Positions 35,617 through 54,770 of a stretch of DNA of 64,000 bases are shown one piece after another (the stretch's first letter is position 1; the number at the start of each line of letters is the position of its first letter). The DNA comes from a virus. Under the pieces are notes generated by a model. The model worked only from the letters and a program-made list of their open reading frames with translations, had not been told where the DNA came from and did no database searches. The position numbers and the translations under genes are program-made. The stretch covers positions 27,892 through 91,891 of IMG/VR virus record IMGVR_UViG_3300022468_000627. One strand, written 5' to 3'.

Positions 35617-35623
35617 GCGGGTG

Positions 35624-35639
35624 ATTTTGTTGTCACGAC
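35624..35639 (-). promoter_or_regulatory. Conserved late-promoter-like motif (copy g)
   Basis: Minus strand GTCGTGAC AA CAAAAT, then 7 nt, then ATG 35616. Confidence 0.5.
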
Positions 35640-35663
35640 GCGACGCGCATTTTCCGCGCGCAC

Positions 35664-35687
35664 AAAAAAAGCCCGCCGAAGCGGGCT
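35664..35687 (-). terminator. Intrinsic terminator
   Basis: Minus strand AGCCCGC-UUCG-GCGGGCU followed by UUUUUUU. Confidence 0.7.
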
Positions 35688-35714
35688 AACTCTCTGTCTC
35701 TGTCGCGCTGCCGA

Positions 35715-35957
35715 TTATGCCAGTGCAGCCCGGGCTTGTGCGATGACCTGCTGCAGCCGACCGCGCTCCTCGACCATCTCCATGTAGGCATCGGGCTCGC
35801 TGGTGGACTTGGCCTGCGCGGCGGGCAGCTTGCCCTCGATGTCATCGAGCAGGTGCTGTGCGCGCTCCAAAATCTGGCGCTCCATCGCCTCGGTCTGCTG
35901 CGCCATGGCGCCCAGCTCGCCAAGCTGGCGGCGGGTGTTCTCGATGTGCTGCGTCAC
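35715..35957 (-). CDS. Hypothetical coiled-coil protein
   Basis: 80 aa from GTG 35957 (GTGA overlap with the upstream stop). The track ORF is 5'-extended. Confidence 0.5.
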   Translation of the reverse strand: MTQHIENTRRQLGELGAMAQQTEAMERQILERAQHLLDDIEGKLPAAQAKSTSEPDAYMEMVEERGRLQQVIAQARAALA

Positions 35958-36166
35958 TTGCTGACCTCGGACAGGCACCAAGCCCGCATGTCGGGCTGGC
36001 GGATGTTGTAGCACTGCGAGCGCTCACGGTGCACGCGCGCCAGGCAGTAGCTGCGGGCGTCGCCGTCCGCGATGTTGTAGCAGGCGCCCGAGTGGGGCTG
36101 CTGGGCGTTGGCGGGCACGGCAACCAGGGCGGAAAGCAGAAGGGCGAAAAGGGCAGGCTTGATCAT
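35954..36166 (-). CDS. Small secreted Cys-repeat protein
   Basis: 70 aa from ATG 36166. Signal peptide MIKPALFALLLSALVAVPANA, then two CYNI..D.R.(Y/W)CL repeats. Confidence 0.55.
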   Translation of the reverse strand: MIKPALFALLLSALVAVPANAQQPHSGACYNIADGDARSYCLARVHRERSQCYNIRQPDMRAWCLSEVSK

Positions 36167-36179
36167 GAATTGAGTGTAA

Positions 36180-39100
36180 TCAAAAAAGAGCATCCTGTGA
36201 ATCCTGCTGCAGCACCTGCCGGTGCTTGAGGAAGTGCGCGATCCCGGTGTCGTCCAGGCCTTCCATGGACGACGTCATGAGCTCACGCAGCCCGTACTTC
36301 TTGGACAGGCGTTCGCGCGCCTTGTGCACCTCAGGGTGGTCAGCCACGCCGTCGATCAGCTCGACGTCGTTCTTCTGCCCCGTGCGGAAAATCCGGCCCT
36401 GGCGCTGGGCGTGGGTCATGGCGGTCTGCGGCGTGTCGAACTGGTAGAGCCACTGGCCGCGCTGGATGTTCATGCCCGTGGCCCCGGCGTCGCTCGCCAC
36501 CAGGATGTCCGCCCCGGGCTCGCCGCCCTCTGGGTTGAACAGCAAGCGCTTGCGCTCCTTGTCCTTGCCGCTGTCGCTGCCGGTGATCGTCACCACGCGG
36601 TGCCCGGCCTTCTCCAGGCGCTCGGCCAGCATCTTCACGGCCTCGCGGTTGTGCGCGAACACCACGCCCGGCTTGCCCTTGCGCGCGGAGGCGTGATTGA
36701 GCACGTCGTCAACCAGCGGGTTGTCAGGATGCGTGTTGATGACCCGCTGCACCGCCGACGACTTCATGATGCCCAGGCTCTGCTGGAGCTGGCGGGCGAC
36801 GTCCTGGTGCTCGGCCTCGGGCACGCCCTCGAACGAGGCCGGGCTGATCGCCTTCATGGCGTCCACGTCCACCTTGCCCTCCATGCGGGCGATGCGGGCG
36901 CTGGTGAAATGCTTGTCTAACTCGGCAAGCGAATCCTGCTGCCCCTTAGACAAGGAAACCTTCGATTCCTTGCGGTCTGCGCGGACGTCGGGGTCGATCT
37001 TGCTTGGATAAACATGGCGTGCCATCTCGCGCCGTAGACTATCTTTCGAGGCCAGCGTGTCGGCGCCATACCGGCGCATGAAGGCGTCCCGGTCAGCGTA
37101 GCGGCCCGGGTCCATCTTGTGCATGAGGTCGAACACCTCGCTGGCGTCGTTCTTCACCGGATCGCCGCTGGCCGCGACGTAGTAGGGCGTGTGCTCGCTC
37201 AGGGCGTCGACGACGTTCGCCAGGCCGCTGTTCTCCTTGCCCGCACGGTTGAGCGTGTACTGGCTCTCATCGGTGGTCAGGTAGTCGAAGTCGATGCCCT
37301 CGCGGTCCATGATGCTGCGCATCCAGGCCTTGCGCTCGGCAGGCGCCATGGCCTGCAGGCGGTCGGACATTTCAGCCGGGCTGATCCCAGCGTGCTGGGC
37401 GCCGAGGTGCATCATGTCGTCGCGGAACGACTGGTGCGTCATGACGCAGAAATGGTGCTCGGGGTTCTTGTAGGCCTTGATGCGCTCCTCGCGGCTCGCG
37501 CCTGGCTCGCAGTGCCAATTGAACTTGCCCGGCTGCAGGTAGCGCAGGGCCTCGCCGCTGAACTGGCCCTGCACGATGCTGGGCACCAGGAACAGGCCGC
37601 GCTTCGCCTTGCCCTGGCCGTGCAGGTGCGTGAACGCCGCCATCTGCAGCAGGGACTTGCCAGAGCCGGTGCCGAACGCCGCCACGACGCGCTTGTTTGC
37701 CTCTACCAGCTTCACCAGGCGCTGGCGGGCGTAGTTCTTGCCGCCGCTCATCGTGGGGTTCCACAGCTTGACCTGCTGGCCCGGCTTAAAGTTCTTGCCG
37801 ACCTGGTTCATCATGCCGGCGATCTGCCGCTCGGCCACATGGCCCACGGTGTAGCGCTCGTCGCCAGCCAGCGCCGCCGGCGCGGCGTCCTCGCTGGGCG
37901 GGGCATCGTCGGCGCCAAAGAACCCCATCTGCGCCTGCTCGAATGCCTCCTGCTGCTGGCGCGCGGCGTCGAGCTTGTCTGAGACCGCGCCCGAGGCGTA
38001 GCGCCCCTGCACGCGCTCGCGCAGGCCGTCCACCAGCTCGCGTTCGCGGTTCATGCGCTCCTCGCGCGCGGCCGGGTCCACGGCGTCGAGGTGGTTGAGG
38101 TTGTTGCGGATGACCTGCCGGCCGATCTTGATGGGCCGGCCGGGGTTGAGCCGGTTGTGGTTGTCGGCGAAGGACCGCGCCACGTTGGACTTGATCATGT
38201 CCTGCAGCGCCTCGTAGGCCTTCTCGTGGCCGTGCATGACGTCGATGTAGCGGTTCCAGTCCAGCCCTGCCGCCGTCATCTTGCCGGCCACATCGTCACG
38301 CTGTGCCTTCCACTCCTGCCACTCGGGGTTGGCAGCAGTCTCGCCGAACATGTCCGTCGTCTCGCGCTCGGGCTCGCTGCCGTCCAGGCGCTCCAGCTCG
38401 GCGCGGTGCGCGGCCTGCTCGGGGTTCTCCTTCGCCACGTTGCGGTAGAAGAACTCGCGCAGCGCGCGCTGATCCTGGGGCGTGAGCTCACCCAGCTGCT
38501 TGAACGCGGCCACGCCCTCGGGGTGCTCGGAAAGCGCCCGGTGCAGGGCGTCCACCGACCGCTGGTCGACCTTGAACTGCTGGCTGTTGAGCGCCGACCG
38601 CTCGCCGCCGTAGCGCTGCTGCACGAAGGCGTCGGCCAGATCGTTGAAGTAGCCAGCCCGGGACTCGGCGCGCACCAGCTTGCCGCGCTCGTCGCGCGTG
38701 GGCGCGATGTGCTCCAGCACCTGCATGTACTCGTCGCGGCGGTCGCCCACCTTCTGCAGCATGTCGAACGACAGAAGGTCGGCGTAGATGTCGGCCGGCG
38801 TGTCGCCGTCGGCGGCGCGGCCGCCGATGTAGTCCTTGATGGCCTGGGCCATGGCCTCGCTGCCGGGTGCACCTGGCGGCTGGAACGGCTCAGCCAGGCG
38901 CGGCGCCACGCCTGGCTTCACGTCCATGCCCAGGTCGGGCCGGTTCGCCACCCCCAACGGCAGCCAGCCATCCTCATCGTGGTCGCCGCGGATGATCGCC
39001 AGGTTGCGCTTGACCTGCTCGACGTCGTCGCGGCTCACGGGCTTGGCCAGCCGGTCGAGGCCAGCGGCCTTGATGGTCAGGAAGGTGTCGCCGGCAACGG

Positions 39101-40748
39101 ACTCCAGCGTGTAGTCGCCGCGCTGCAGGCCGATGGCGCGGACGCGGCGGATGGCGTCCTCGATGCCGACCTTGCCGAGCGAGCCCTGCCACTGGTCCTT
39201 GGCGCCCTGCTTGAGCGCCACGGACAGGGCCGCGTTGGCCTCCATCTCGCCCAGGGCCTGGCCTAGGATCTTCTGCGCGTCGCCGACCGCTTTGCGCCGG
39301 CGGCCGTTCAGCTCCTGCGCCACCTGCAGGTCCGCGCCGGTGGCGGCCTCGCCCAGCTCGATTTCCTTGGCGGCCTCCATCAGCTCCCGGGCCTCGCCCA
39401 GCGCCTCCTGGCTGGTCGCCATGTAGTGGTGCAGGTGAAATTCCTGCACGCCCTCGGTGATGCGCTCAGCGTCCTCGGGCAGATCCTGGTGGATTCGTCG
39501 CGCCAGCACCTGCGCAGCGCCGGCGATGCCCAGCACGTCCACGACCGAGCGATCCACCAGTGCCTCGCCGCCCACGGCCAGCGCCAGGCTGTTGATGCTG
39601 TTGTAGGCGCCGATGCCGATGTGCTTGCCCAAGGTCTCCTCGGGCCGGTCGCCCGCCAGCCGCTTGAACTCGGACAGGAAGGCTTGGGTCTGCGCCGTGC
39701 GCAGGTCGTTGTTCAGCTCCTCGGCCAGCTTGGCGTCATCGTCGGGGCTGGCGGTGTACTCCAGCACGAACGCCTTGGGCTCGGCCGCTGTGCTGTTGAT
39801 CTTGGCGGCCTGCTCGCGGGCCTTCTGCTGCACCTGCTTGAGCCGCTTGGCGGCCTTGAGCATGTCCACCGCCTTGCGGGTGTCGGCCAAGGTCGCCCGG
39901 GCGTCCGGCGCCGCTGGCTCGCGGATGCCCTCCAGTTCGTGCTGCAGCAGCTTGGCGGTCTCGCCGCGCTGCACGGCAGCCCGGCGCTGTCCCTCGGTCA
40001 TCTGAGCCTGCTTGGCCGCTTTCACCTTGTCCGCCTCAGCCTTGAGGTCGGCGTCGGTCAGGCCGGCGTCCTCGGCACGGCCCTTGAAGTCGGAGCTGAA
40101 ACCCAGGCCGCCGGACTTCTCTGGGATCGGCGCCAGGTCCTGCACGGACAGGGTTTCGGGGTCCTTGGCGTCGAGCGGAACCTCGCCAATCCCGGCCTCC
40201 ATGCGGCTCGCGTGGTCGGCCACCAGGCGCTGGCGCTGCATGTCCACGGCCTGCATGGCGCGCGCCAGGACGGTGTTGTGGTGCTTGACCCGCAGCTTGG
40301 CCTGGGCAGCGTCGGACAGGTGCGCGTAGTCCTGCTCGGGGAATTCGAGGTCTTTGGCCTCCCAGCCAAGGGACTGAGCCACGGTCTGCACAAACTCGCG
40401 CTCATGCTGGCGCTGCTGGGCGCGCAGGTCTTCCTTGGCCTTGTTCTTGGCCGCGACCACGCCGGCCGCCTTGTCTCGCTCGCGCTGGGCCTTGGCTTCT
40501 TCCTTCTTGGCCGCGCGCCGTTCTTCGGCTTCCTTCTTGTACTCGGATTCCTTGCGGACGTGGCGCAGCTTGAGGTAGTTCAGCTTGCCGCCGGCGCCGC
40601 CGATGACGTGGGCGCTGCCGTCAGGGTTTGGCTGGATCAGGACCGGCTGGCCCGGGCCGCTGTCGCCGTTGGGGTGAACGGTGATCCACCGGGCGTTTGG
40701 TGGCAAAGCGGCTTTCAGAAAGAGGACGGGGCGGACTTTGGGCAGCAT
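36180..40748 (-). CDS. Giant (1522 aa) helicase-containing protein, candidate virion-packaged effector
   Basis: Walker A AAFGTGSGKS (about nt 37653-37673), DExx YLTTDESQ, helicase-C blocks ASDAGATGMNIQ..QFDTPQTAMTHAQRQGRIFRTGQ. About 1000 aa of non-enzymatic N-terminal region. Leaderless-type motif h upstream. Confidence 0.85.
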   Translation of the reverse strand: MLPKVRPVLFLKAALPPNARWITVHPNGDSGPGQPVLIQPNPDGSAHVIGGAGGKLNYLKLRHVRKESEYKKEAEERRAAKKEEAKAQRERDKAAGVVAAKNKAKEDLRAQQRQHEREFVQTVAQSLGWEAKDLEFPEQDYAHLSDAAQAKLRVKHHNTVLARAMQAVDMQRQRLVADHASRMEAGIGEVPLDAKDPETLSVQDLAPIPEKSGGLGFSSDFKGRAEDAGLTDADLKAEADKVKAAKQAQMTEGQRRAAVQRGETAKLLQHELEGIREPAAPDARATLADTRKAVDMLKAAKRLKQVQQKAREQAAKINSTAAEPKAFVLEYTASPDDDAKLAEELNNDLRTAQTQAFLSEFKRLAGDRPEETLGKHIGIGAYNSINSLALAVGGEALVDRSVVDVLGIAGAAQVLARRIHQDLPEDAERITEGVQEFHLHHYMATSQEALGEARELMEAAKEIELGEAATGADLQVAQELNGRRRKAVGDAQKILGQALGEMEANAALSVALKQGAKDQWQGSLGKVGIEDAIRRVRAIGLQRGDYTLESVAGDTFLTIKAAGLDRLAKPVSRDDVEQVKRNLAIIRGDHDEDGWLPLGVANRPDLGMDVKPGVAPRLAEPFQPPGAPGSEAMAQAIKDYIGGRAADGDTPADIYADLLSFDMLQKVGDRRDEYMQVLEHIAPTRDERGKLVRAESRAGYFNDLADAFVQQRYGGERSALNSQQFKVDQRSVDALHRALSEHPEGVAAFKQLGELTPQDQRALREFFYRNVAKENPEQAAHRAELERLDGSEPERETTDMFGETAANPEWQEWKAQRDDVAGKMTAAGLDWNRYIDVMHGHEKAYEALQDMIKSNVARSFADNHNRLNPGRPIKIGRQVIRNNLNHLDAVDPAAREERMNRERELVDGLRERVQGRYASGAVSDKLDAARQQQEAFEQAQMGFFGADDAPPSEDAAPAALAGDERYTVGHVAERQIAGMMNQVGKNFKPGQQVKLWNPTMSGGKNYARQRLVKLVEANKRVVAAFGTGSGKSLLQMAAFTHLHGQGKAKRGLFLVPSIVQGQFSGEALRYLQPGKFNWHCEPGASREERIKAYKNPEHHFCVMTHQSFRDDMMHLGAQHAGISPAEMSDRLQAMAPAERKAWMRSIMDREGIDFDYLTTDESQYTLNRAGKENSGLANVVDALSEHTPYYVAASGDPVKNDASEVFDLMHKMDPGRYADRDAFMRRYGADTLASKDSLRREMARHVYPSKIDPDVRADRKESKVSLSKGQQDSLAELDKHFTSARIARMEGKVDVDAMKAISPASFEGVPEAEHQDVARQLQQSLGIMKSSAVQRVINTHPDNPLVDDVLNHASARKGKPGVVFAHNREAVKMLAERLEKAGHRVVTITGSDSGKDKERKRLLFNPEGGEPGADILVASDAGATGMNIQRGQWLYQFDTPQTAMTHAQRQGRIFRTGQKNDVELIDGVADHPEVHKARERLSKKYGLRELMTSSMEGLDDTGIAHFLKHRQVLQQDSQDALF

Positions 40749-40754
40749 CCGCCC

Positions 40755-40770
40755 ATCGTAGGGTCACGAC
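40755..40770 (-). promoter_or_regulatory. Conserved late-promoter-like motif (copy h)
   Basis: Minus strand GTCGTGAC CC TACGAT, then GGGCGG, then ATG 40748. Confidence 0.5.
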
Positions 40771-40771
40771 C

Positions 40772-41101
40772 TCAAAGCCCGCCCGCGTCCGGGTCCACCA
40801 GCCGGAACGTGCCGCCGCCGGCCAGGTCTTCGACCTCGCTGCCGCCCAGGTTGAAACTGGCGTTCTTGCGGTACTCCTCGACGGCCGCCGCCAAGGCCTC
40901 CTGCAGGTCGGCGTGGTGCGGCATGCGGGCGGTCACGTCGGTGTCGATGTGGTCGCCCAGCAGGTGCAGGTTGTCGCGGGTGTAGAAGCGCAGCAGGGCG
41001 CGCTTGACAAGGTACCAGTAGACCCCGAAGGCGCGGTACCGGCGGGGGTCATCCTGGAGCAGCTGCAGCGTGCTGGCCGCGAAGGTTTTCGGGTCGATCA
41101 T
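40772..41101 (-). CDS. Hypothetical protein
   Basis: 109-aa ORF. ATGA overlap with the stop of the 2065-aa gene. Confidence 0.6.
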   Translation of the reverse strand: MIDPKTFAASTLQLLQDDPRRYRAFGVYWYLVKRALLRFYTRDNLHLLGDHIDTDVTARMPHHADLQEALAAAVEEYRKNASFNLGGSEVEDLAGGGTFRLVDPDAGGL

Positions 41102-44100
41102 GCGGCCTCCTTGGTGGATTCGCGGGCACTGGCGGCCTGCAGGTATTCGTCGATCACGTCACCCAGCTTACGGCCTGCACGGCGCTGTCCCTCGGGGTCG
41201 TAGCCGTAACCGCTGGGCGCCGAAAACGGACCACCCAGGTTGTACTGGCGAAGCTGACCAACGGTTTGATCAAGGATGCCCATGCGGCCGGCCACCTTCT
41301 TGATCAGGTTCAGCGTGCGCACGCTCTGGCTGTAGTGCCCGGCGATCGCCCGCAACGTGGCTTCATCGTTCTTGCTCAGGCCGTGGCGATCGCCGGACTC
41401 AGCAATGGCCTCGGCGAGGTCATTGTGGCCGCTGTTGCGCGCCATGCGGATCAGCGCGGCATGCTTGGTCTGGTTTTCGCCGCCAGTCGCGTAGCCGTCA
41501 TGGCCCACAGTGCCCACCTTGTCGTCCAGCTCGCCCAGGTGGCGCATCCGGGCCCAAGCCAGCGCCAGCGCCTCTTTCGGGTAGCTGGCCTTGAAGTCGC
41601 GCGCGTAGCCGCCCTCGGCCTTGCCGCCCAGCTTCGCCAGCGGGAACAGCGCATTCAGCACCTCGTGCCCAGCCTTGGCGCGTCGGATGGTTTGCATCTG
41701 CTCGTCCTGCAGCCGGGCCTTGGCCTCCTTCTCCAGCGCCGACGACACGCCGTACATCCGCTGGCCGCTTAGGCTGTCCAGTAGCCCCTTCATGGGATTG
41801 ATGTGCCGATCGCTGTAGCTTGCGCCCTGGTACTCGCGCGCCGCCAGCACGTCATAGCCACCGCTGCGCGGTCCACGCCCCTTGGACCGGTTGACCGACC
41901 GGCTGCTGATACGGGCGCCGCGCCGCGCGTCCATCCATGCCTGAATGGCTTTCTCTTTCGCCGCCTCGGTGGGAAGCAGGTAGTCGTGAGTCTCGTGCTT
42001 GTCCTTGGTCGAGTAGCTCGGCACCTTCTCGATCTTGCCCGTAGCCTTCTCAACCATGTAGGCGTCGCCCAGGTCGTGAAAGCCCTTGTACGAGGCCTTC
42101 GCATCCTTGATCTGCCGCTGAATCAGGTCGTTGTTTTTCTCCAACACAGCCGACGGCATGGCCTTCACATCCTCCCACTTGGTGAGGCTGTTCAGCTTCT
42201 CGTTGGCGGCGGACTCCATGGCCTTGCCCACCTCCTCGGCCTCGGCGTTCTTGTCGAAGTCGTAGGGCTTGGCGTCGCTCAGCTCGGACATGGGCAGCGT
42301 CACCTTGTGGCCGCCGCTCGTGTCGGCGTAGCGCCGCATGGTCACGGTGCCGGCCTTCATGTTGACGCCCGTCACCACCATCTTGCCGTCCTTGGCGAAG
42401 TCCAGGCCGACGTCGGCGGTCAGCACCGTGCCGGTCTGGGGGTGGATCAGCACGTCGGTCGCGCTGTCGAGCGCGGCCTTGGCCGACCAGTATTTGTTGT
42501 TGAACAGGCTGGTCTTGGTGGCCTCGATTTTTTGGCGCAGCCGCTGGGCGCTGGTCGTGTTCTTGTTCTTGAGCGAGCCGTAGCTGCGCGACATTTCGGT
42601 GAAGCGCACGAACTCGGCCTGGGCGTCGGAGCGCTTGCCGGCGTCATAGCGGGCGGTGGCCGATGCCTTGTCCTCCGCGTACTTCTTGCGGGCCTCCTCC
42701 GGGTCGGCCGCCAGCATGATGCGCATGTCCTCGTTCGAGAACGAGCCCTCGCGCGCCAGGTTCTCGACGCGGTCGCCGCCGTTCCACAACAGGTCCTGCC
42801 AATCCTTCTTGGCCGCCACGGCCTGGTAGCGGTAGCCGTCGAAGCTGCCCTTGGACAGGTAGGTGTGGATGCGCAGCGACTCGTTCATGTTGCCCTGGCG
42901 CAGGCCGCGCCCGTTGCGCTGCTGCAGCGTGGCGGGCTCCCACGGCACGTCCATGTGGTGGATGTCGGTCGTGGTCTTCTGCATGTTCAGGCCCTCGGCC
43001 ATCGTGGCGTTGCCCACCACGACCTTGAGCTTGCCGGCGTTGAAGGCGTTGGCGATGTTCTGCCGCTTCACCGCCGAGCCGGCGACCTGGGCGTTGATGA
43101 CGCCGATCTCCTCGCGCTTGAACCCGGCATCGACCAGGGCGGCCACGATCTTGTCGTGGCTGTCGATGTACTCGCTGAACACGATCTGGCCGCCGTCCTT
43201 GCCGCCCTCGACGCACTGCTTCGCCAGGTGCGCGTACTTCGGGCTGCTGGCGCCGCCGTACTTGGCCTTGTCCAGCAGGGACAGGTCCAGCGCCGCCTTG
43301 TTCATCTTGTCCATGATGGCGAAAATGTGCGCGTCGCCGGTGGCGTCCTTCTTGCCAGCCGACTCCTCGGCCAGCTCGCGCAGCTCGGCGTAGACGGCCT
43401 GCTGCGCCGGGCTCATGTCCACCAGGTGCAGCCGGTCGTCGCGCTCGGGCAGCTTGAGCCCCACCTGGTCGGCGGTGCGACGGTCGATGTAGCGCGCCAT
43501 GATCTCGCGCAGCTCGTCCAGGTTCTTGAACCCGGACACCACGGTGGCGTCCTCGATGTCGCCGCCGGTGCCCAGCACCTTGTCGGCCTTGAACTCGCAG
43601 AAGCGGTCCAGGAACTCCTCGCTGTTGCGGATCTTGATGCGCTCAAAGGCCTCGGGCGCGATGTGCGACAGCATGGAGTAAATCTCCAGCGGGCTGTTCT
43701 TGGTCGGCGTGGCCGTCAGGCCGTAGACGTTCTTCCCGCCGTTGTTGTCGCGCACCCACCGGGTCTTGAGGTTGAAGTCGAGCGCGCGGTTCGACAGCCC
43801 CTGTCCGCCCAGGAATTTCGGCTGCTCGCCGAACCGGGCCCGGGCGGCGTACAGGTTCTTCTGGTGGTGCATTTCGTCCTGGATCAGCATGTCCGCGCCG
43901 AGCTCGTTGAAGTAGATGGCGTCGGTGCGGTCGCTAAACTCGCGCTGGGCGATGTGCTGCTCGTAGCGCTCCTTGATGGCCTTGCGCCGCTTGTCGCCGG
44001 CGTTGCCCAAGGACTCGCCACGCTGCACCCAGAAGTCGTCGCTGTAGTAGCGCTCCTTGGTCTCGGGATCGAGGTCGACCTCCTCGAACGCCGGCTCGCT

Positions 44101-47295: not shown

Positions 47296-47300
47296 GCGGC

Positions 47301-47324
47301 GGCACCAGTGGCGGGACTGGTGCC
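47301..47324 (-). promoter_or_regulatory. 5'-leader hairpin just upstream of the methylase-helicase start codon
   Basis: Minus strand GGCACCAGU-CCCGCC-ACUGGUGCC (9-bp stem) ends 5 nt before ATG 47295. Confidence 0.4.
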
Positions 47325-47325
47325 G

Positions 47326-47341
47326 ATTGTGCTGTCACGAT
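47326..47341 (-). promoter_or_regulatory. Conserved late-promoter-like motif (copy i)
   Basis: Minus strand ATCGTGAC AG CACAAT. Overlaps the stop codon of 47335..48558. Confidence 0.4.
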
Positions 47342-48558
47342 GCCGGCGGCGCCGTAATGCTGGCTGCAATTGCCTGGAGCGCCTTCTTGGGTGCGACGAA
47401 TTCCTTTTTGGCCCCCATGTCGGTGTGGCCAACGCGGATCAGGTCGGCGATGTGCGGCCGCACTGCGCGCGAGCTGATGCCGAACACCTTTGCGGCCGCA
47501 GGGATGAACCACTCCAGCCCAGCCGAGCCATCGCGCAGACCGAGCAGCTTGAGGTCGGCGTCCGAGGCCTCGCCGCCAGACAGCAGGCGATCGCGCAGAT
47601 TGCTCACCGCCCCAGCGTGGTCAGCAGCCGCCTTATCGTGGGTTGCACGTGTCTGCAGCGACTGGCTGGCAGCGTTGACCGCATCCTCGGGCTTGGCGTG
47701 GTAGTTCCCCAGCACCTCGCCGTTGACCTCGACGCCGTAGTGCCCACTGATCAGCCCCTTGCCGCGTCGCCATTTCGCGCCCGGGATGTCAGCCAGCAGG
47801 TGGTCGTGCTCGCCGGGCGGCGCAGGGCCCGCGCTCTCGCCCCCGAACAGGTCACGAGTGTCCTTCACCGGGTCCTTGCCGGCATACGGGCTCGGCCCCA
47901 TCGGCTTGCCGCTGCTGGCACCGCCGAACAGGCTCATCTGCCCGGGACCGCCAGGCGTGCCGTGGGCCGCCCGCCCGTGGTAGCCGCGCGCGTTGACGAT
48001 CCGGCCGCCGCGCAGGTACGGGCCGACGTAGCCCTTGAAGAACAGCACGACGGCGGGCTGGGCCTTGATCATGGCCGGCGCGTTGCGCGTGGCGCGAACC
48101 TTGGCGATGAACTCGGCCACCGGCATAGCCGTGATGCCGCCGAAGAATCGCGGATCGTCGTAGTGCTCCAGGTAGGCGTCGCGGGCCTCGTCCATGCTGG
48201 CGAAGTTGATCATGCACTTCTGCTCGTCGGGCGTGTCCCACTGTTTGCGCTTCATCTGCTGCACGACGTAAACCTCGGGCGCGTCCGGGTAGCTGCCAAT
48301 GAACACGTCCACCGGGTCACCATCCACTCCAAGCGTGCCCAGGATCTCGCCGTAGGCGTAGCGAAACACCGTGCGCCAAGCCTTGCCGGTCTCGTCGACG
48401 CCCTCGCGCACCGTGCCCTCGGGATGCTCGATGGCAATGGTCAGGCCGTGCCAGTCCTGGCGCAGCTTGGGGTAGTCGCCGGACTTCGCCTGCTCGGGCG
48501 TCGGGTCGCCGCCGATCATGGTGCGGGTGGCCGGATGGGATTTCAGGAGGATGATCAT
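47335..48558 (-). CDS. Inorganic-pyrophosphatase-like domain protein with unknown C-terminal half
   Basis: 407 aa. IAIEHPEGTVREG..YAYGEILGTLGVDGDPVDVFIG..DEQKCM resembles family I PPase blocks (E.P.G.., YG.iP.T..DGDP.DV). ATGA overlap with the MuF stop. Confidence 0.7.
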   Translation of the reverse strand: MIILLKSHPATRTMIGGDPTPEQAKSGDYPKLRQDWHGLTIAIEHPEGTVREGVDETGKAWRTVFRYAYGEILGTLGVDGDPVDVFIGSYPDAPEVYVVQQMKRKQWDTPDEQKCMINFASMDEARDAYLEHYDDPRFFGGITAMPVAEFIAKVRATRNAPAMIKAQPAVVLFFKGYVGPYLRGGRIVNARGYHGRAAHGTPGGPGQMSLFGGASSGKPMGPSPYAGKDPVKDTRDLFGGESAGPAPPGEHDHLLADIPGAKWRRGKGLISGHYGVEVNGEVLGNYHAKPEDAVNAASQSLQTRATHDKAAADHAGAVSNLRDRLLSGGEASDADLKLLGLRDGSAGLEWFIPAAAKVFGISSRAVRPHIADLIRVGHTDMGAKKEFVAPKKALQAIAASITAPPAS

Positions 48559-49712
48559 TCGCGGTCTTTCTCGCCCTGGGCGAGCTGGGCGCGGATCCAG
48601 TCGCCGAACTCGGCGCTGTCACCTGGCCGGTCGGTGACGGTGGGCACCCAACGCCCCCGGCAATGCGGGTGCACCAGCCCGGCAGGCACGGTCCACATTT
48701 CGTCCGCCTCGCGCTCGACGAAGGCGTTGCCCACGCGCTTGCGCGGGCTGGCGCTGCGCCCGATGTTGTTCTTCCCCGCCCAAATTTGAGTGTCGGGGTC
48801 CTTGTGCACCATGCCCGGGTCCACCACGGTGACGACCATGCCGTCGATCTTGCGGCAGAACGCGCAGGCGTTCCGGTACTGCTCGACGCGCTTCACCTTG
48901 GTGCCGGCCGGCAGGCTGGAGATGTAGCCCTGGGTCTGGGCTTCGCCCGCTTCGGTGACGGCGATGCGCCGCCAATCGCGGTTGAGCGTGCCGAAGGCGT
49001 CGAGCAGCTTGGTCTCCAGCGACGAGCCAGGGCCCTGCACGCCCAGCGCGCGCTGGGTGACGTGCTCGGCGATGACGCCACGCATGGCGTGCCGCGCGCT
49101 CTCGGCCAGGTGACGCACGTTCTCGGCGCAGCGCTGGGCGGCAAAGTCCATCATCGCACGCTGGGCCTGGGTGGCGCCGAATGCGGCCGCGACCGCCTCG
49201 GTGGTGCCAGGCATCGCCATGATCATGGCGTCGGCCTGCTTGGCGTCAACCTCGCTCATGGCGGCCTGCACGCGACCCATGATGCTCGACCGCGCCGACA
49301 GCCATTCGGCCTCGGTGCGCATGTCCTCGGGCGGCAGGTAGCGCTGCGCCAGGTAGTCCACCGCCAGCATGTGGTCGTCGAGCGTCCACTCGGCCGGCGG
49401 CAGGTGCTCCAGGTACAGCTTGACCAGCGACTTCTCGGCCTCGTTCCAGCGCTCCATGACGCCAGCCGGTCGGGCGATGCGCTCACCGGCCGTGTGCCGG
49501 TGGCCTTCTGTCCACGCCAGCAGCTCAGTGCGGAACGCATCGAGGCGCGCCAGGCCGCGCTGGGTGAACAGCTCGACCAGGCGGGCGATCAGCGGGCTGT
49601 CCATCGGCGCCCAGATACCGTCGTCGTGGTCGTGCCCGGCCTTGCACAGGTACTCCAGCGCGGCGTTCGTGCGCGGCTCGTCGAGGTCGATGATGTCGAT
49701 GAATAGGCCCAT
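48555..49712 (-). CDS. MuF / SPP1 gp7-like head morphogenesis protein
   Basis: 385 aa. RRIAVTEAGEAQTQGY and C-terminal AGLVHPHCRGRWVP match the MuF family R..TE and HPNCRC-type blocks. Confidence 0.8.
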   Translation of the reverse strand: MGLFIDIIDLDEPRTNAALEYLCKAGHDHDDGIWAPMDSPLIARLVELFTQRGLARLDAFRTELLAWTEGHRHTAGERIARPAGVMERWNEAEKSLVKLYLEHLPPAEWTLDDHMLAVDYLAQRYLPPEDMRTEAEWLSARSSIMGRVQAAMSEVDAKQADAMIMAMPGTTEAVAAAFGATQAQRAMMDFAAQRCAENVRHLAESARHAMRGVIAEHVTQRALGVQGPGSSLETKLLDAFGTLNRDWRRIAVTEAGEAQTQGYISSLPAGTKVKRVEQYRNACAFCRKIDGMVVTVVDPGMVHKDPDTQIWAGKNNIGRSASPRKRVGNAFVEREADEMWTVPAGLVHPHCRGRWVPTVTDRPGDSAEFGDWIRAQLAQGEKDRE

Positions 49713-49718
49713 GCTCGC

Positions 49719-49734
49719 ATGGTGCCATCACGAC
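49719..49734 (-). promoter_or_regulatory. Conserved late-promoter-like motif (copy j)
   Basis: Minus strand GTCGTGAT GG CACCAT, then GCGAGC, then ATG 49712. Directly after terminator 49735-49763. Confidence 0.5.
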
Positions 49735-49763
49735 AAAAAGCCGGGGCGGTCTCCCACCCCGGC
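49735..49763 (-). terminator. Intrinsic terminator
   Basis: Minus strand GCCGGGG-(10-nt loop)-CCCCGGC followed by UUUUU. Confidence 0.65.
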
Positions 49764-49928
49764 CTTCGCCGCCTGACGCGCGGTATCGGTCTGGCCCCAG
49801 GCGAGCGGTGCCCGAAGACACCACCAGGAGACGCCGCCCACCCATGAAACGGCACGCCCGTACCAGACTGCGGCCCTTACATCCCGAGGATCCGCTGCGG
49901 TCGACACCCAACCATGCCCTTGCGGGCG
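49735..49928 (-). ncRNA. Predicted small RNA of about 195 nt (promoter motif k to terminator 49735-49763)
   Basis: Discrete unit bounded by motif copy k and an intrinsic terminator, with no credible ORF. Long-range pairing GCCGCCCGC / GUGGGCGGC. Confidence 0.4.
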
Positions 49929-49934
49929 GCCCCC

Positions 49935-49950
49935 AGTGTGGCGTCACGAC
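49935..49950 (-). promoter_or_regulatory. Conserved late-promoter-like motif (copy k), not followed by an ORF
   Basis: Minus strand GTCGTGAC GC CACACT directly after terminator 49951-49976. Confidence 0.45.
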
Positions 49951-49976
49951 AAAAAGAAACCCGCACGAGGCGGGTT
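49951..49976 (-). terminator. Intrinsic terminator
   Basis: Minus strand AACCCGC-CUCGU-GCGGGUU followed by UCUUUUU. Confidence 0.65.
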
Positions 49977-50740
49977 GAAAAGCGGCCGAAGCCACTCAGG
50001 GAGGAGGTTGATGGTGCAGCGCTCGAAGCCCAACGCAATGCGCCAGTGTCGATCCCGACGCCGCCAAAACAGGCCCAGGTTCAATCGACTTACCCCGAGG
50101 CCAACGGCTCTTGCACACCATCACATCAGCGGGCCGGGCTTGATACCGGCTCCACGCGGGGTAACAACGGGCCGCAGGCCGGACCAACCGCCCACTTTCC
50201 CCCGCCCGCTCACTCCTGGCCCTGGCCGCTGGTCGGCTGTACCTCTTGTGCTGGCCTAATGTTCAGGCGTTTCCTTCAGCGCCGCCGCTGATGTGATGGT
50301 CCTCGTCTTTCCGAGGCGTCTCCCGTGGGTGGGTCGACCTGTGGTTTGCATTTATCGGGGCAGACCCACACAAACTGCTACCCGTGCTCGTTGATAGCGG
50401 CCAGGAACCCCCGACCCAAACCATCAAGCGTGATGACTGGCTGGCGCCGACGTGCTTCCCGGGCAACCTAGTGGTCGGAGCTGAAACCGTCTCTCTGTGT
50501 GCCAATCATCACACTTGATGGCCCTGGTTTACAAAGCCAGGCATCAAGGCCGGTTGCCCATCCGGCGCACCCTGAATTCGCGCAAGGCGTATAGGGGCGG
50601 CTCCCATCGCTGGGTTCTGCTGATTTCCCCGCAGTCTCCTACGGTAAGGGGCTCAACTGGCCCAGCAGACGTGTTCCCGGTTTGATTCCCAGCCCGGCCT
50701 GCAAGCGTCGTCGGAATGGTTGAATTCTAACCCAAAACGA
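49951..50740 (-). ncRNA. Candidate large structured non-coding RNA (about 790 nt) downstream of the alarmone hydrolase gene
   Basis: No ORF with coding-type GC3, and visibly lower GC. A 16-bp helix (50117-50132 / 50285-50300). A 20-bp helix (50421-50440 / 50502-50521) whose two non-Watson-Crick positions are G.U on the minus strand but C.A on the plus strand. Ends at an intrinsic terminator. Confidence 0.4.
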
Positions 50741-51337
50741 TCAGAGCTTGTCCAGCCCCGTGAGGTACGTTGTAGAAAACAGACGTTCCAGCACCGGATG
50801 CTTGGCGCCCATGGACTGCACCACTTGGCGCGCGTCGTCGAAATACTTGCGCTTGCGGGCTGCGTCCCAATCCGGCGGCGACGCCACCAGGTCGCGCAGG
50901 TTCGCCGTCTTGTCGGCCATCTTCACAGCGGCCGCGCGCGGGCTCATCTTCGCCGCGTGGGCGGCCTGCCATGCGGCCTTGCCGCCAGGACCGAAGTCCG
51001 CCGGGTTGGTCAGCTCGGCCACCAGATCGGCGACGTCGTGCCCAAACTCCGCGACGAGGTTCGCGTGCGTGGCACCCGTGTCCTCCATCGTGTCATGCAG
51101 CAGGGCGGCCTGCAGGGTGACGTGATCGGTGATGCCGGCCTCGTCGTGCAGGATGCGGGCCACGGCGCGCGGGTGCTCGATGTAGGGGACCAGCGGGGCG
51201 CCGGGCTTGCCCTTGCGGTACTGGCCGGCGTGGGCCTTGTCGGCGTAGCGGTCGGCATTGCGGACGTGGGGCGAGACGTAGACGCCATCGCGGCGGGTGT
51301 GCCCCCGAACCTGGATCGACTTGAACAGGAGGATCAA
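50741..51337 (-). CDS. Small alarmone hydrolase (RelA/SpoT-type HD domain) with a 28-aa N-terminal shared motif
   Basis: AHAGQYRKG..PYIEHPRAVARIL and AALLHDTMEDT are the RSH hydrolase His and HD..ED blocks. The only usable start is TTG 51337 (TTGA overlap with the upstream stop, AGGGGG 6 nt upstream). The track's ATG 51511 extension is Arg-rich off-frame-type sequence. Confidence 0.8.
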   Translation of the reverse strand: MILLFKSIQVRGHTRRDGVYVSPHVRNADRYADKAHAGQYRKGKPGAPLVPYIEHPRAVARILHDEAGITDHVTLQAALLHDTMEDTGATHANLVAEFGHDVADLVAELTNPADFGPGGKAAWQAAHAAKMSPRAAAVKMADKTANLRDLVASPPDWDAARKRKYFDDARQVVQSMGAKHPVLERLFSTTYLTGLDKL

Positions 51338-51561
51338 GCGGCCCCCTGCTCGGCCGGTTGCTGGGCGGCGGGCTGCTGCTCGCCCTGAGGCCGCTGGCCC
51401 ATCAGGCGCTGCGCCTCGGTTTCGTCGATCTCGTCGCCCCAGTCGATGTCCTTCGGCACGGCGCCCTGGTACGACACGAACTCGCTGCCGTTCCAGACTT
51501 CCTTGGGCCACGCCCGGGCTGGGCCCCGAAACAGCGCTCCCTCGTTCTCAATGAAAATCAT
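51334..51561 (-). CDS. Small acidic protein (75 aa), candidate antitoxin or adaptor
   Basis: ATG 51561 shares its A with the upstream TGA. Strong GC3. Asp/Glu-rich (DIDWGDEIDETEAQ). Confidence 0.55.
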   Translation of the reverse strand: MIFIENEGALFRGPARAWPKEVWNGSEFVSYQGAVPKDIDWGDEIDETEAQRLMGQRPQGEQQPAAQQPAEQGAA

Positions 51562-53003
51562 CACGCAACCCTCCGAAACAACAATGCCATTGTAGCCGCT
51601 TGATCGGATTTGATCAAAGTCTTGTCCTGGCTGCCGTTGCTTTTCGACCACGCATCGTCGTAGATCGCCTTCTGGCGCTTCAAGGCCTCGTAGTACGACC
51701 GGTGGTCATCGTCCGACCAGCTGTCGCCAGGCTCGGGCTCGCCGTACTTGCCTTGCAGCGACCGCGTGATTTCGTAGTCCTTGTGGCCCTTCTCCTTCGC
51801 CAGGGTCATCGCCTTGGTGTGGATCTGCAGCTCGGCCACCATGCCGTTGGGCAGCTTCACGAACGCCATGAGGTCGCGGTAGCCCTCGGCGGTCGGCTTC
51901 GCAAACCGGTTCTTGGGCTTCTGGGCGATCTCCAGGCCGGCGGCTTTCATGTGCTCCAGCGCCTGCTTGACGTGGCCCATGGTGGGCACGCTGATCGTGC
52001 CGCGCACGATGTCGCGCAGCTGCGACCAGTCGCCCTTGTAGTCGGCGTCGACCTTCTCCTTGGCTCGCTTCTCGCCCTTGAGTGGCGCAATGAACAGGAA
52101 GCCGTCGCCGTTCTCCCACTGCTCGGGGGTGATCTGCTCGGGCTTCATCCCGGTCTTGAGGCCCATGGCCTGCTGCACCTTACCCAGCATGCCCCGGAAC
52201 TGCTCCAGGCCCTCGGTGCCCTTCTGCACCAGCTCGTCCCAGCTCTGGGCGGGCTGGTTGACCTTGTCCGGCAGCGCCTCGATCGTGGCCTTGTCGAACA
52301 GCGACGCGGCATCGACCGGCGCCGGCTGGGCCTGCTCCTGGGCGCCCTGCTCGGGCTGGGCGTCATGCGGGCTGGCGTCGGGTGCGCCGTCGCCCTGCCA
52401 GTGGTGCGTGATCTTGTCGTGGGGCACGCGGTGCTCGCCGCCCTTGGGGTCGCGCACTGTGACGCCGTGCTGGCCGGCAGACAGAACCTGGCCGTGGCCG
52501 CGATGCTCGCCGTTCTCGTAGCCGATGTGCTGGCCTGCCTGGGCCGGCGGGCCGCCGATGTCGGTGCTCACCCAGCGCGTGGTCTGCACGCCGTTCTTGT
52601 CGGTGACCTTCTTCTGCTGCAGGCCAGGGCCGGGCGCCGGGCCCGCCTTGAGAAACAACACCGGGCGCCGCCCGAATGCTTTTGCCACCATGGGGTCGTC
52701 CTTGGATTCGTTGGGGGTGGCCACGAAGCGACGACGGCCGCTGGCGTCCTGCACCAGCATGCCGTCCTCGCCGTGGTCGATGACGTCGTAGCGCTGCGGG
52801 ATCCGCTGCTTGTGGCCCAGCACCTTGTCCCAGCGGACTTTCTGGTGCTGGCCGTCGATCTTGACGGTGACGCCGTGGCGGCCGTGCGCGGTCACCTCGC
52901 CGGTGCACGGCTGGCCGCCATGGTGCACGTACAGGTGGTCACCCACCTCGACATCGCCGCGCGGCTCGGGCTCTTTCTGGGGCTTCGGGGGCTTGAAGGT
53001 CAT
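51561..53003 (-). CDS. RelA/SpoT-like nucleotidyltransferase (small alarmone synthetase / toxSAS-like) with N-terminal duplicated His-rich SH3-like modules
   Basis: 480 aa from ATG 53003 (ATGA overlap with the portal stop). The C-terminal half has PLKGEKRAKEKV, LRDIVRGTISV, AEGYRDLMAFV, VAELQIHTKAM, GHKDYE in the order of the RelA_SpoT synthetase blocks. Confidence 0.8.
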   Translation of the reverse strand: MTFKPPKPQKEPEPRGDVEVGDHLYVHHGGQPCTGEVTAHGRHGVTVKIDGQHQKVRWDKVLGHKQRIPQRYDVIDHGEDGMLVQDASGRRRFVATPNESKDDPMVAKAFGRRPVLFLKAGPAPGPGLQQKKVTDKNGVQTTRWVSTDIGGPPAQAGQHIGYENGEHRGHGQVLSAGQHGVTVRDPKGGEHRVPHDKITHHWQGDGAPDASPHDAQPEQGAQEQAQPAPVDAASLFDKATIEALPDKVNQPAQSWDELVQKGTEGLEQFRGMLGKVQQAMGLKTGMKPEQITPEQWENGDGFLFIAPLKGEKRAKEKVDADYKGDWSQLRDIVRGTISVPTMGHVKQALEHMKAAGLEIAQKPKNRFAKPTAEGYRDLMAFVKLPNGMVAELQIHTKAMTLAKEKGHKDYEITRSLQGKYGEPEPGDSWSDDDHRSYYEALKRQKAIYDDAWSKSNGSQDKTLIKSDQAATMALLFRRVA

Positions 53004-54754: not shown

Positions 54755-54770
54755 AGCGTAGCGTCACGAC
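54755..54770 (-). promoter_or_regulatory. Conserved late-promoter-like motif (copy l)
   Basis: Minus strand GTCGTGAC GC TACGCT, then TGCGGA, then ATG 54748. Confidence 0.5.

Follow-up and report, generated by a model that had tools for sequence, protein, structure and literature searches.

A candidate internal-protein (ejected-effector) cassette on both sides of the MuF gene in a PHB04-like tailed phage

The window analysed here is a stretch of 64,000 nucleotides (G+C about 67%) from the virus record IMGVR_UViG_3300022468_000627, positions 27,892 to 91,891. In this window the genes for the portal and the prohead protease are separated by a gap of 17.4 kb, and every gene of the locus lies on the minus strand. 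The gap holds ten protein genes and a 1-kb non-coding island. From the portal onwards these encode a RelA/SpoT-like protein, an acidic open reading frame (ORF) and an HD hydrolase; after the island follow a MuF-like protein, a protein with an InPase domain, a methylase–helicase resembling DarB of phage P1, a Ulx-like ORF, a second large helicase, a small cysteine-containing protein and a coiled-coil ORF (Table 1). Each gene listed in an earlier note on this DNA was located, although the note's count of 11 genes between portal and protease becomes ten and the island. With a probability of about 0.72, the interval is an internal-protein cassette of a tailed phage like Bordetella phage vB_BbrM_PHB04 (PHB04 below), inserted on both sides of the MuF gene and encoding effectors that would be ejected into the host. 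Packaging of the cargo is favoured because of homology to DarB and Ulx, matches to polyvalent proteins, a conserved position in the head module, apparently late expression and a tag shared by the cargo proteins.

Cargo proteins and their shared tag

The tag consists of four or five hydrophobic residues followed by a lysine and a small residue. It is found at the N-termini of the HD hydrolase ((M)ILLFKS), the InPase protein (MIILLKS), the DarB-like protein (MLVFFTKS) and the 1522-residue helicase (...PVLFLKA), and again internally in the RelA/SpoT-like protein (PVLFLKAG, residue ~115) and the InPase protein (VVLFFKG, residue ~178). The internal copies sit exactly where homologues split or gain modules, and each is preceded by a further Lys-small site (MVAK↓AFG and MIK↓A, the arrow marking the proposed cut). 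A regular expression for the tag, applied to the six-frame translation of the window, gave six matches, all in frame within cargo proteins, four of them at N-termini and two at module junctions; from composition 0.09 matches are expected in the cargo proteins, and none of 2000 shuffles gave more than two. In about 340 kb of related loci, 26 of the 29 matches lie at the N-termini or junctions of cargo-type proteins. Three of four cargo-less loci have no match, and the fourth (L010) has a single one, in a 49-residue ORF. Tags also occur outside the head module, both in PHB04 gp049 (L014, 1579-2334; 251 residues, MSTVILFLKS), which has its own late-type promoter, and in a 1177-residue ADP-ribosyltransferase of Aeromonas phage ST4 (L003, 34694-38227), which starts MRLLLLKS. 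The sole example checked from outside the clade, the PB1-like portal–InPase fusion of phage 14-1 (ORF17), lacks the tag. The whole tag module spans about 25–45 residues, and in several instances (the HD hydrolase, the DarB-like protein and the C-terminal module of the InPase protein) a short segment with a central D/N-G follows; examples are TRRDGVYVSPHVR, HVRKDGTVVQPHVR and LRGGRIVNARGYHGR.

A related lysine motif, h-x-K-[AS]-h with h for a hydrophobic residue, marks the proteins of head assembly. The sites in the scaffold amount to 32.6 per 1000 residues, against 0–6 per 1000 in the other ORFs of the window and about one per 1000 overall, an enrichment of roughly 30-fold. Scaffolds of Pseudomonas phage Dolphis, ST4, PHB04, Morganella phage Mecenats66 and contig L016 contain four to six h-x-K-[AS]-h sites, and that of Thermus phage phiMa contains one. 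In the major capsid protein, AELQK↓ALTAGYGTD, some 27 residues into the sequence, is a candidate site of maturation, and both the site and the block that follows are kept in relatives. A C-terminal segment of the protease (residues ~208–240) repeats capsid residues ~27–55 after an h-x-K↓A site, and this duplication is kept in all relatives, phiMa included. The portal ends in a tail (...DMAKAFGLPVFKFEP) whose site, DMAK↓AFGLPVFKFEP, combines h-x-K-[AS] with a hydrophobic-K/R signature as at the cargo junctions; the tail is conserved in all relatives, the cargo-less ones included. Counterparts of the sites in scaffold, capsid and protease are present in PHB04, Dolphis, ST4, Mecenats66 and L016, and those of the portal-tail site in PHB04, Dolphis, ST4, Mecenats66 and L015–L018. 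The prohead protease of phage T4 makes many cuts in the scaffold and one in the capsid protein, and removes a targeting peptide from internal proteins. Since the cargo tags end in the Lys-small pair common to the scaffold, capsid, protease and portal sites, the prohead protease probably trims them, and we infer from the sequences that the tag serves as both address and processing site.

The RelA/SpoT-like protein directly behind the portal is composed of a Tudor/SH3-like N-terminal domain, a junction, a second small beta domain and a putative C-terminal RelA/SpoT-type pyrophosphokinase. The motifs R-x-K...K, D-x-V-R-G and E-L-Q-I-H-T of the last domain were read by eye, and the only solved structure matching it at E<0.1 is Tas1 (6ox6; E 2.8e-5), an interbacterial toxin that is a (p)ppApp synthetase. 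A HMMER scan with residues 1–235 found at least 302 clusters (50% identity), with lengths from ~90 to 2130 residues and nearly always matched at their N-termini. In this N-region, which always lies behind a portal gene, the two junction lysines are at least 90% conserved. The C-terminal domains vary: among 85 members of at least 400 residues, 24 carry Zeta_toxin, 17 RelA_SpoT and five InPase, while ART-PolyVal, RadC, MuF_C, HD_4 and an SNF2 helicase occur once each. The next gene varies too. The acidic ORF family is always downstream of RelA-type versions (PHB04, L005, L006, L015), the Zeta-toxin version in L018 is followed by a different small ORF, and toxin-less versions are followed by none. 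The post-portal protein thus appears to behave as a polymorphic toxin, of RelA/SpoT or Zeta type, each with its own small partner gene. Co-variation of the small ORF with toxin type fits a cognate partner or immunity protein, so the tag-less acidic ORF is a candidate for that role and is more likely a partner in the producer cell than cargo.

The best solved relative of the HD hydrolase is Mesh1/HDDC3 (E 1.3e-28, residues 27–184), with SAH structures at 1e-10. It carries LLHDTMEDT, the HD...ED motif of a Mesh1/SAH-type small alarmone hydrolase, and its catalytic domain does not include the 26-residue tag module at the N-terminus, (M)ILLFK↓S...TRRDGVYVSPHVR. PADLOC had no model for the RelA-like protein, the acidic ORF, the HD hydrolase, the InPase protein or the Ulx-like ORF. 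Elsewhere in the locus it returned generic helicase and methylase domain matches only, and a defence-system identity of the locus proteins was rejected.

In the InPase protein the tag (MIILLK↓S) is followed by the InPase domain, a junction with the second tag and a C-terminal module of 220 residues. Its PHROG matches are to virion structural, minor head and DarB-like polyvalent/antirestriction families, and the InPase domain is present in 460 phage records, where minor head protein is the commonest annotation. The C-terminal module has no match in PHB04, whose InPase protein, gp028 (169 residues), aligns to the N-terminal part only; in L006 extra sequence splits this module from the InPase domain inside a single ORF of 787 residues.

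The DarB-like protein begins with its tag module (MLVFFTK↓S...HVRKDGTVVQPHVR), followed by a clade-specific N-region of ~300 residues, an N6-adenine methylase (NPPY) and an SNF2 helicase. BLASTP aligned it with P1 DarB in three collinear blocks, covering the methylase, the central region and the helicase (best E 1e-47), and the NPPY and DExH motifs of the P1 DarB family are both present. Its PHROG matches are phrog_11801, phrog_1685 and phrog_10089 ('DarB-like antirestriction'). The last of these is matched by the InPase protein as well and, judging from its annotation and its profile length of ~4,600 positions, is probably the family of the Bcep22/JC1 giant proteins. The next ORF, whose PHROG family is annotated 'Ulx-like anti-restriction', also has a weak direct match to P1 Ulx (E 1e-5). 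The order darB then ulx is that of P1, where the pair adjoins the portal gene.

The second helicase has an N-terminal tag module (MLPKVRPVLFLK↓A...RWITVHPNG) and then a non-helicase N-region of 1000 residues; it matches phrog_62 over its full length. It was also considered as a counterpart of P1 DdrB, which was rejected for want of any similarity. When the DarB N-region and the helicase N-terminus were used as queries in word-indexed protein searches, almost nothing useful came back. Mecenats66, L016 and L009 also have the large helicase between MuF and protease, and in phiMa it immediately precedes the head genes. The coiled-coil protein accompanies this helicase in PHB04 (gp023), Mecenats66 (ORF62) and phiMa (gp60), an 86-residue ORF takes its position in L016, and the helicase-less relatives Dolphis, ST4, L008 and L010 lack it.

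The MuF-like protein contains a C-terminal C..C...HPHCRGRW motif, but Pfam gave only sub-threshold matches (VG15, E 0.0035, 18 bits against a cutoff of 26; Phage_min_cap2, 0.014; Phage_Mu_F, 0.074). Its AlphaFold2 model (pLDDT 82.9, pTM 0.78) was compared with BFVD by Foldseek, and the top matches were minor capsid or head morphogenesis domain proteins (probability 1.0, E 7e-6 to 1e-3; TM-scores low, at 0.3–0.45), with MuF–Zeta-toxin and MuF–ADP-ribosyltransferase fusions among them. Neither its sequence nor its fold matched any solved structure. All relatives have the gene, at a conserved position in the head module. The MuF identity proposed in the earlier note is thus upheld by fold and position and not by Pfam sequence matches; at the level of the predicted fold, the protein is confirmed as a MuF/SPP1-gp7-like minor head protein.

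Table 1. Coordinates of the features of the portal-to-protease interval and its flanks within the window (aa, amino acids)
Feature	Position	Strand	Evidence or remark
Portal promoter box GTCGTGA	54764-54770	-	-10-like box next, ATG 6 nt beyond; same arrangement in PHB04
Portal protein, 582 aa	53000-54748	-	Pfam Phage_portal, E 3e-19
RelA/SpoT-like post-portal protein, 480 aa	51561-53003	-	RelA_SpoT 26.5-27.1 bits, cutoff 27
Post-portal protein junction, MVAK↓AFG...PVLFLK↓AG	~52635-52700	-
Putative RelA/SpoT-type nucleotide pyrophosphokinase domain	~51783-52061	-
Acidic ORF, 75 aa	51334-51561	-	Without tag
HD hydrolase, 198 aa	50741-51337	-	HD_4, E 8e-15
ORF-free island, 1028 bp	49713-50740	-	No codon-position GC periodicity
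Conserved hairpin element	~50660-50716	-	Stem covariation
Terminator in island	49958-49976
RNA-unit promoter box	49944-49950	-
RNA unit of ~190 nt, ending in intrinsic terminator	~49737-49930	-	Compensatory changes
MuF promoter box	49728-49734	-
MuF-like protein, 385 aa	48555-49712	-	Fold-level support
InPase protein, 407 aa	47335-48558	-	PF18823, E 3e-39
InPase domain, polyvalent type	48100-48495	-
InPase protein internal junction with second tag, MIK↓A...VVLFFK↓G	~48004-48057	-
DarB-like N6-methylase and SNF2 helicase, 2065 aa	41098-47295	-	Pfam Eco57I, N6_Mtase, SNF2-rel_dom, Helicase_C
Ulx-like ORF, 109 aa	40772-41101	-	phrog_1629, 8.6e-17
Late-type promoter box of 1522-aa helicase	40764-40770	-
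SF2 helicase, 1522 aa	36180-40748	-	ResIII, DEAD, Helicase_C at residues 1009-1457
Small Cys-containing protein with signal-peptide-like N-terminus, 70 aa	35954-36166	-	Alternative start 36193 gives 79 aa
Coiled-coil ORF, 80 aa	35715-35957	-	Partner of large helicase
Intrinsic terminator after coiled-coil ORF	35670-35687
Late-type promoter box of protease	35633-35639	-
Prohead protease, 303 aa	34705-35616	-	phrog_1028, 1.6e-35; phrog_752 match at residues 208-240
Scaffold protein, 214 aa	34064-34708	-	Seven h-x-K-[AS]-h sites
Major capsid protein, 484 aa	32583-34037	-	phrog_752, 8e-88

Gene order in relatives and expression of the interval

The nearest cultured phage is PHB04 (Phabquatrovirus), with 76% nucleotide identity over 44% of the region. 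Its genes gp023–gp035 keep the portal-to-protease order of the window, with 52–73% protein identity and the same tags and promoter boxes. The two differ in that PHB04 has a NinI-type phosphatase in place of the non-coding island, an InPase protein without the second module and an extra membrane ORF of 59 residues. PHB04 also encodes an integrase, and separate replication helicases are located elsewhere in its genome.

The cargo-less relatives, namely Dolphis, ST4 and the contigs L008 and L010, show the order portal–MuF–protease; in Dolphis, ST4 and L008, but not in L010, the protease gene is preceded by one for a small secreted or membrane protein. Compared with these, the cassette is an insertion of about 15 kb of extra DNA. 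Because MuF and the secreted mini-protein are present in cargo-less relatives, they belong to the baseline head module and not to the insertion, which trims the ~17 kb of inserted cargo proposed in the earlier note. Portal and protease genes, taken there to be normally adjacent, have MuF and mostly a small protein between them even in these relatives. The small protein has homologues between MuF and protease in L008, and Dolphis gp7 is a 'membrane protein' of the same size in the same slot. The version in the window has two CYNI...R..C repeats, and its position in the head operon is odd for an exported protein.

Cargo sets vary in two slots, portal-to-MuF and MuF-to-protease, in PHB04, L005–L007, L015, L017 and L018. 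L016 and Mecenats66 have a large helicase and small ORF(s) before the protease only, including the coiled-coil ORF in Mecenats66, and in phiMa the large-helicase homologue is followed by genes for an 80-residue protein, protease, scaffold and capsid. The cargo slots of L017 contain a tagged protein of 468 residues and an LPD1-containing protein of 1419 residues. In L018 a Zeta-toxin protein occupies the position of the RelA/SpoT protein. L007 encodes a single 1569-residue protein with methylase and HExxH parts, whose N-terminal module is in common with the DarB-like protein.

Much of the locus appears to be expressed from promoter-like units consisting of GTCGTGA, 4–5 nt, a -10-like (T/C)AC(A/G)AT, about 6 nt and ATG, a spacing that would imply leaderless or near-leaderless late mRNAs. 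Such units are confined to the structural-gene strand, where they precede, among others, the portal, MuF, helicase, protease and tail genes; they lie at 54770, 49950, 49734, 40770, 35639, 31897, 25854, 16523, 12440 and 4199, all on the minus strand, and PHB04 carries them too. Their layout recalls the late promoters of P1, which have a -22 box and a -10 box. The earlier note held that all genes of the interval use the same promoter motif and that many are start/stop-coupled. The coupling is real, with start/stop overlaps (ATGA, TGATG, TTGA, GTGA) at seven junctions, but the promoter claim was too broad. Inside the interval the exact box occurs at three places only, before the ORF-less RNA unit (49950), MuF (49734) and the 1522-residue helicase (40770); those ahead of the portal and the protease fall outside it, the DarB-like gene is preceded by a variant with one mismatch, and the remaining genes are translationally coupled. 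The RelA/SpoT-like gene overlaps the portal stop as ATGA, the HD hydrolase starts at a TTG that overlaps the stop of the upstream ORF, the InPase gene overlaps the MuF stop as ATGA, and the Ulx-like gene is coupled to the DarB-like gene in the same way (ATGA). Expression of the cargo genes thus appears to be late.

Known systems, packaging and alternative readings

The closest parallel is the Dar set of P1. P1 virions package DarB, Ulx and four other Dar proteins, and the first 30 residues of DarB target a reporter to the capsid (PMC9024508). Like the cassette described here, this set (DarB, Ulx, DarA, Hdf, DdrA, DdrB) is multi-gene, internal to the capsid and encoded beside portal and protease genes, and the P1 and PHB04 genomes are both ~94 kb. 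The two differ in that the N-terminal 300 residues of the DarB-like protein in the window are unrelated to those of P1, the window's cargo has a common tag where none was found among the Dar proteins, and the cassette goes beyond the Dar set with alarmone enzymes, InPase and a second helicase. Homologues of DarA, Hdf and DdrA were not found by PHROG or Pfam among the interval proteins. DarB–Ulx pairs have previously been noted in Thermus Lalka phages.

A second parallel is provided by the polyvalent proteins. InPase, RelA/SpoT, methylase–SNF2 helicase and MuF were listed by Iyer et al. (2017) as phage-type polyvalent domains for which packaging was predicted, and solo versions were noted beside late structural genes (PMC5512222). 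One such protein, the DarB-like gp69 of phage JC1 (4515 residues), was detected in CsCl-purified virions by 51 unique peptides (PMC9144972). The domain repertoire of Bcep22 gp75 and JC1 gp69 is the same as that of the window, and LPD and zincin domains are found in the relatives L007 and L017. Whereas a polyvalent protein unites many effector domains (2 to 15) in one polypeptide, of 2000–4600 residues, the window has several coupled genes with one to three domains each, it lacks a zincin peptidase domain, and its module boundaries carry a motif matching the proposed protease site. Larger fusions, of 787, 843 and 1569 residues, are found in relatives.

The sequence logic of the tag is shared with T4 internal proteins and Alt and with the ejection proteins of phiKZ and SPN3US, in which a short targeting peptide ends in the cleavage motif of scaffold and capsid. 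The motif itself differs, h-x-K↓[A/S/G] being proposed here as against L/I-x-E↓ in T4 and [A/S/G]-x-E↓ in phiKZ-like phages, and the window's protease belongs to a different family, unrelated in sequence to the T4 type. MuF-anchored polymorphic toxins of temperate phages and Tas1-type effectors likewise combine a conserved N-terminal delivery region with a variable toxin (RelA/SpoT, Zeta or ART) and a small cognate gene, as the post-portal protein does, except that its delivery region is an uncurated post-portal N-domain and not MuF. Taken with these precedents, the cassette exemplifies a known strategy in split, well-preserved form and is not a new kind of system. The novelty that the earlier note saw in a split, multi-gene format was overstated; P1 Dar is multi-gene, the domains and their solo versions are listed by Iyer et al. 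(2017), and PHB04 has the same order. What appears to be undescribed in the literature on P1 Dar, polyvalent proteins, JC1 and the Lalka phages is the common tag with its match to the proposed protease motif, the toxin-swapping post-portal family and the conserved helicase pair of the head module.

A model of how such a cassette might work can be put forward. Late-type promoters would transcribe the cargo together with the structural genes, many of the cargo genes being translationally coupled. Each cargo module would begin with its tag module, and the tag would direct the protein into the assembling procapsid, probably via MuF, portal or scaffold, much as the first 30 residues of DarB do in P1 and the capsid-targeting sequence does in T4. 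The prohead protease would then probably trim the tags at h-x-K↓[A/S/G] and separate the two-module proteins at their internal junctions, and at infection the cargo proteins would leave the capsid with the DNA. The DarB-like and Ulx-like proteins would protect incoming DNA from type I restriction, as in P1, and the second helicase and its coiled-coil partner would act on the incoming DNA. The InPase protein would remove pyrophosphate or a nucleotide signal, while the Tas1-like RelA/SpoT enzyme and the Mesh1-like hydrolase would interfere with the host's alarmone or ATP pools. The tag-less acidic protein would stay in the producer cell as synthetase partner or immunity protein. The proposal of virion-packaged, co-injected effectors in the earlier note is accordingly narrowed in scope: homology, gene order and the tag argue for it, but MuF and the mini-protein are not cargo and the acidic ORF is likely not.

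Several points weigh against this reading. Packaging, cleavage, ejection and the biochemical roles are inferred for this clade. The P1 authors found no common signal among the Dar proteins (PMC9024508), and a likeness between the P1 DarB targeting signal and the tag was sought and rejected, none being convincing. The regular expression was built from the window's own sequences before being checked on the independent loci, and the internal tags could be relics of gene fusion instead of cleavage sites. The RelA_SpoT assignment lies at the Pfam threshold. An alarmone synthetase and an alarmone hydrolase injected together look self-cancelling, late synthesis of a methylase could merely serve to modify progeny DNA before it is packaged, and the 'late' status of the promoters is deduced from the genes they precede.

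An alternative, which we consider unlikely, is that the enzymes are expressed late but never packaged. The methylase–helicase would then serve progeny DNA, the helicases replication, recombination or packaging, and the alarmone enzymes the dying host; the head operon would be a tolerant insertion site, and the N-terminal motif would reflect folding, a degradation signal or a constraint on translation start. A late methylase can indeed protect progeny DNA without injection, packaging itself is a deduction from sequence, and the interval is an insertion hot spot, having received the NinI-type phosphatase in PHB04, a gene resembling NUMOD3 homing endonucleases in L018 and tRNA genes in L017 and L018. 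Yet the DarB and Ulx homologues are P1 virion proteins, JC1 gp69 is a virion protein, and the InPase and DarB-like proteins match the DarB-like antirestriction PHROG. The head-module position of the helicase is kept as far as phiMa, while separate replication helicases lie elsewhere, in PHB04. Tags at internal module junctions argue against a start-codon effect, and the Lys-small signature of the tag is the one common to the scaffold, capsid, protease and portal sites. Moreover, anti-restriction and host-shutoff functions made only late would be useful mainly if carried to the next cell.

A further alternative would make the first three genes behind the portal, those for the RelA/SpoT-like protein, the acidic ORF and the HD hydrolase, a toxSAS-type toxin–antitoxin (or an abortive-infection or superinfection-exclusion) moron serving a lysogen and unrelated to the neighbouring Dar-like cargo, which is quite improbable: the order synthetase, small ORF, hydrolase resembles toxSAS modules, for which Jimmy and colleagues reportedly described protein and hydrolase antitoxins in 2020, the small ORF co-varies with toxin type, the toxin Tas1 is the closest solved relative and the PHB04 integrase means that the clade may be temperate, but the first gene overlaps the portal stop behind a late-type, not a lysogenic, promoter, the toxin domain is fused to an N-region that is always post-portal and bears the cargo tag, the hydrolase is tagged too, no PADLOC model matches any of the three proteins, and the N-region also carries InPase, ART-PolyVal and MuF_C, typical of injected polyvalent proteins.

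An ejected-effector cassette remains the preferred reading, and from it a bolder idea can be drawn, to be held tentatively and with more doubt than belief. Throughout a large phage clade, the tag would be a general, portable capsid-address label that the prohead protease first reads and then cuts, so that any tagged effector is loaded and injected; the Tas1-like (p)ppApp/(p)ppGpp synthetase and the Mesh1-like hydrolase would together deliver a brief, self-limiting pulse of host shut-off. Candidates for such labelling are DarB-like proteins, helicases, InPase, ADP-ribosyltransferase and the Zeta or RelA/SpoT toxins. The clade concerned is large, the MuF family having more than 1000 members and at least 302 clusters carrying the junction motif. 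Should the tag prove to be a genuine signal for capsid targeting and processing, the injected proteins of a large, mostly uncultured clade could be predicted by a simple sequence rule, and the tag could be used to load capsids with foreign proteins, for which T4 and P1 have already served. The cassette also suggests that enzymes acting on alarmone or ATP pools and Zeta-type kinases may be delivered pre-made at infection, which would constitute a new class of injected host-takeover activities. The sequence-level predictions are directly testable in the cultured phage PHB04.

The non-coding island and a repeat protein

The island between the HD hydrolase and MuF genes contains two conserved elements. 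The first is a hairpin whose loop, CUGGGAAUCAAACCGGG, is invariant and whose stem of 6–9 bp covaries; it recurs in ten viral contigs and often lies immediately 3' of a tRNA gene. Loci that carry it besides the window are L015, L005, L007, L019, L021, L022, L024, L025 and L027–L029. The second, conserved in six genomes, is the ~190-nt RNA unit; its conserved core is GACCGUCUGCGGUUCAUUCGGGAUAUAAAGGCCGCAG, and compensatory changes affect 23 of its 51 predicted pairs. At its place the cargo-less relatives have a different conserved spacer of ~200 nt. An nhmmer search with the alignment of the RNA unit found no copies beyond the six training genomes, and the single-sequence fold z-scores, -2.6 and -1.7, are unremarkable. 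Rfam gave no family at gathering or permissive thresholds, with terminator-like sub-threshold matches only, and ARAGORN detected no tRNA or tmRNA in the window. The structured RNA locus of the earlier note is therefore borne out by two covarying elements, though not by any Rfam family. The ~190-nt RNA might have a role in head assembly or cargo loading. The island was also considered as a decayed phosphatase gene, which was rejected as tblastn with PHB04 gp031 was empty and codon periodicity is lacking. In L017 (~8480–8560) and L018 (~9020–9095), the gap matching the island holds a tRNA-Met-like sequence, with a CAU anticodon identified by eye.

Apart from the interval, a gene at 28405-30639 (minus strand) encodes a protein of 744 residues, 30% of them alanine, in which Gly, Ser and Gln are abundant too. 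It has no Pfam match, and Tandem Repeats Finder reported no repeats at the DNA level. The protein itself is built of ~29 imperfect 22-residue repeats (period 22/66), and its gene lies within a stretch of 74% G+C, just upstream of the gene for a fibre–tail adaptor (Gp77 domain).

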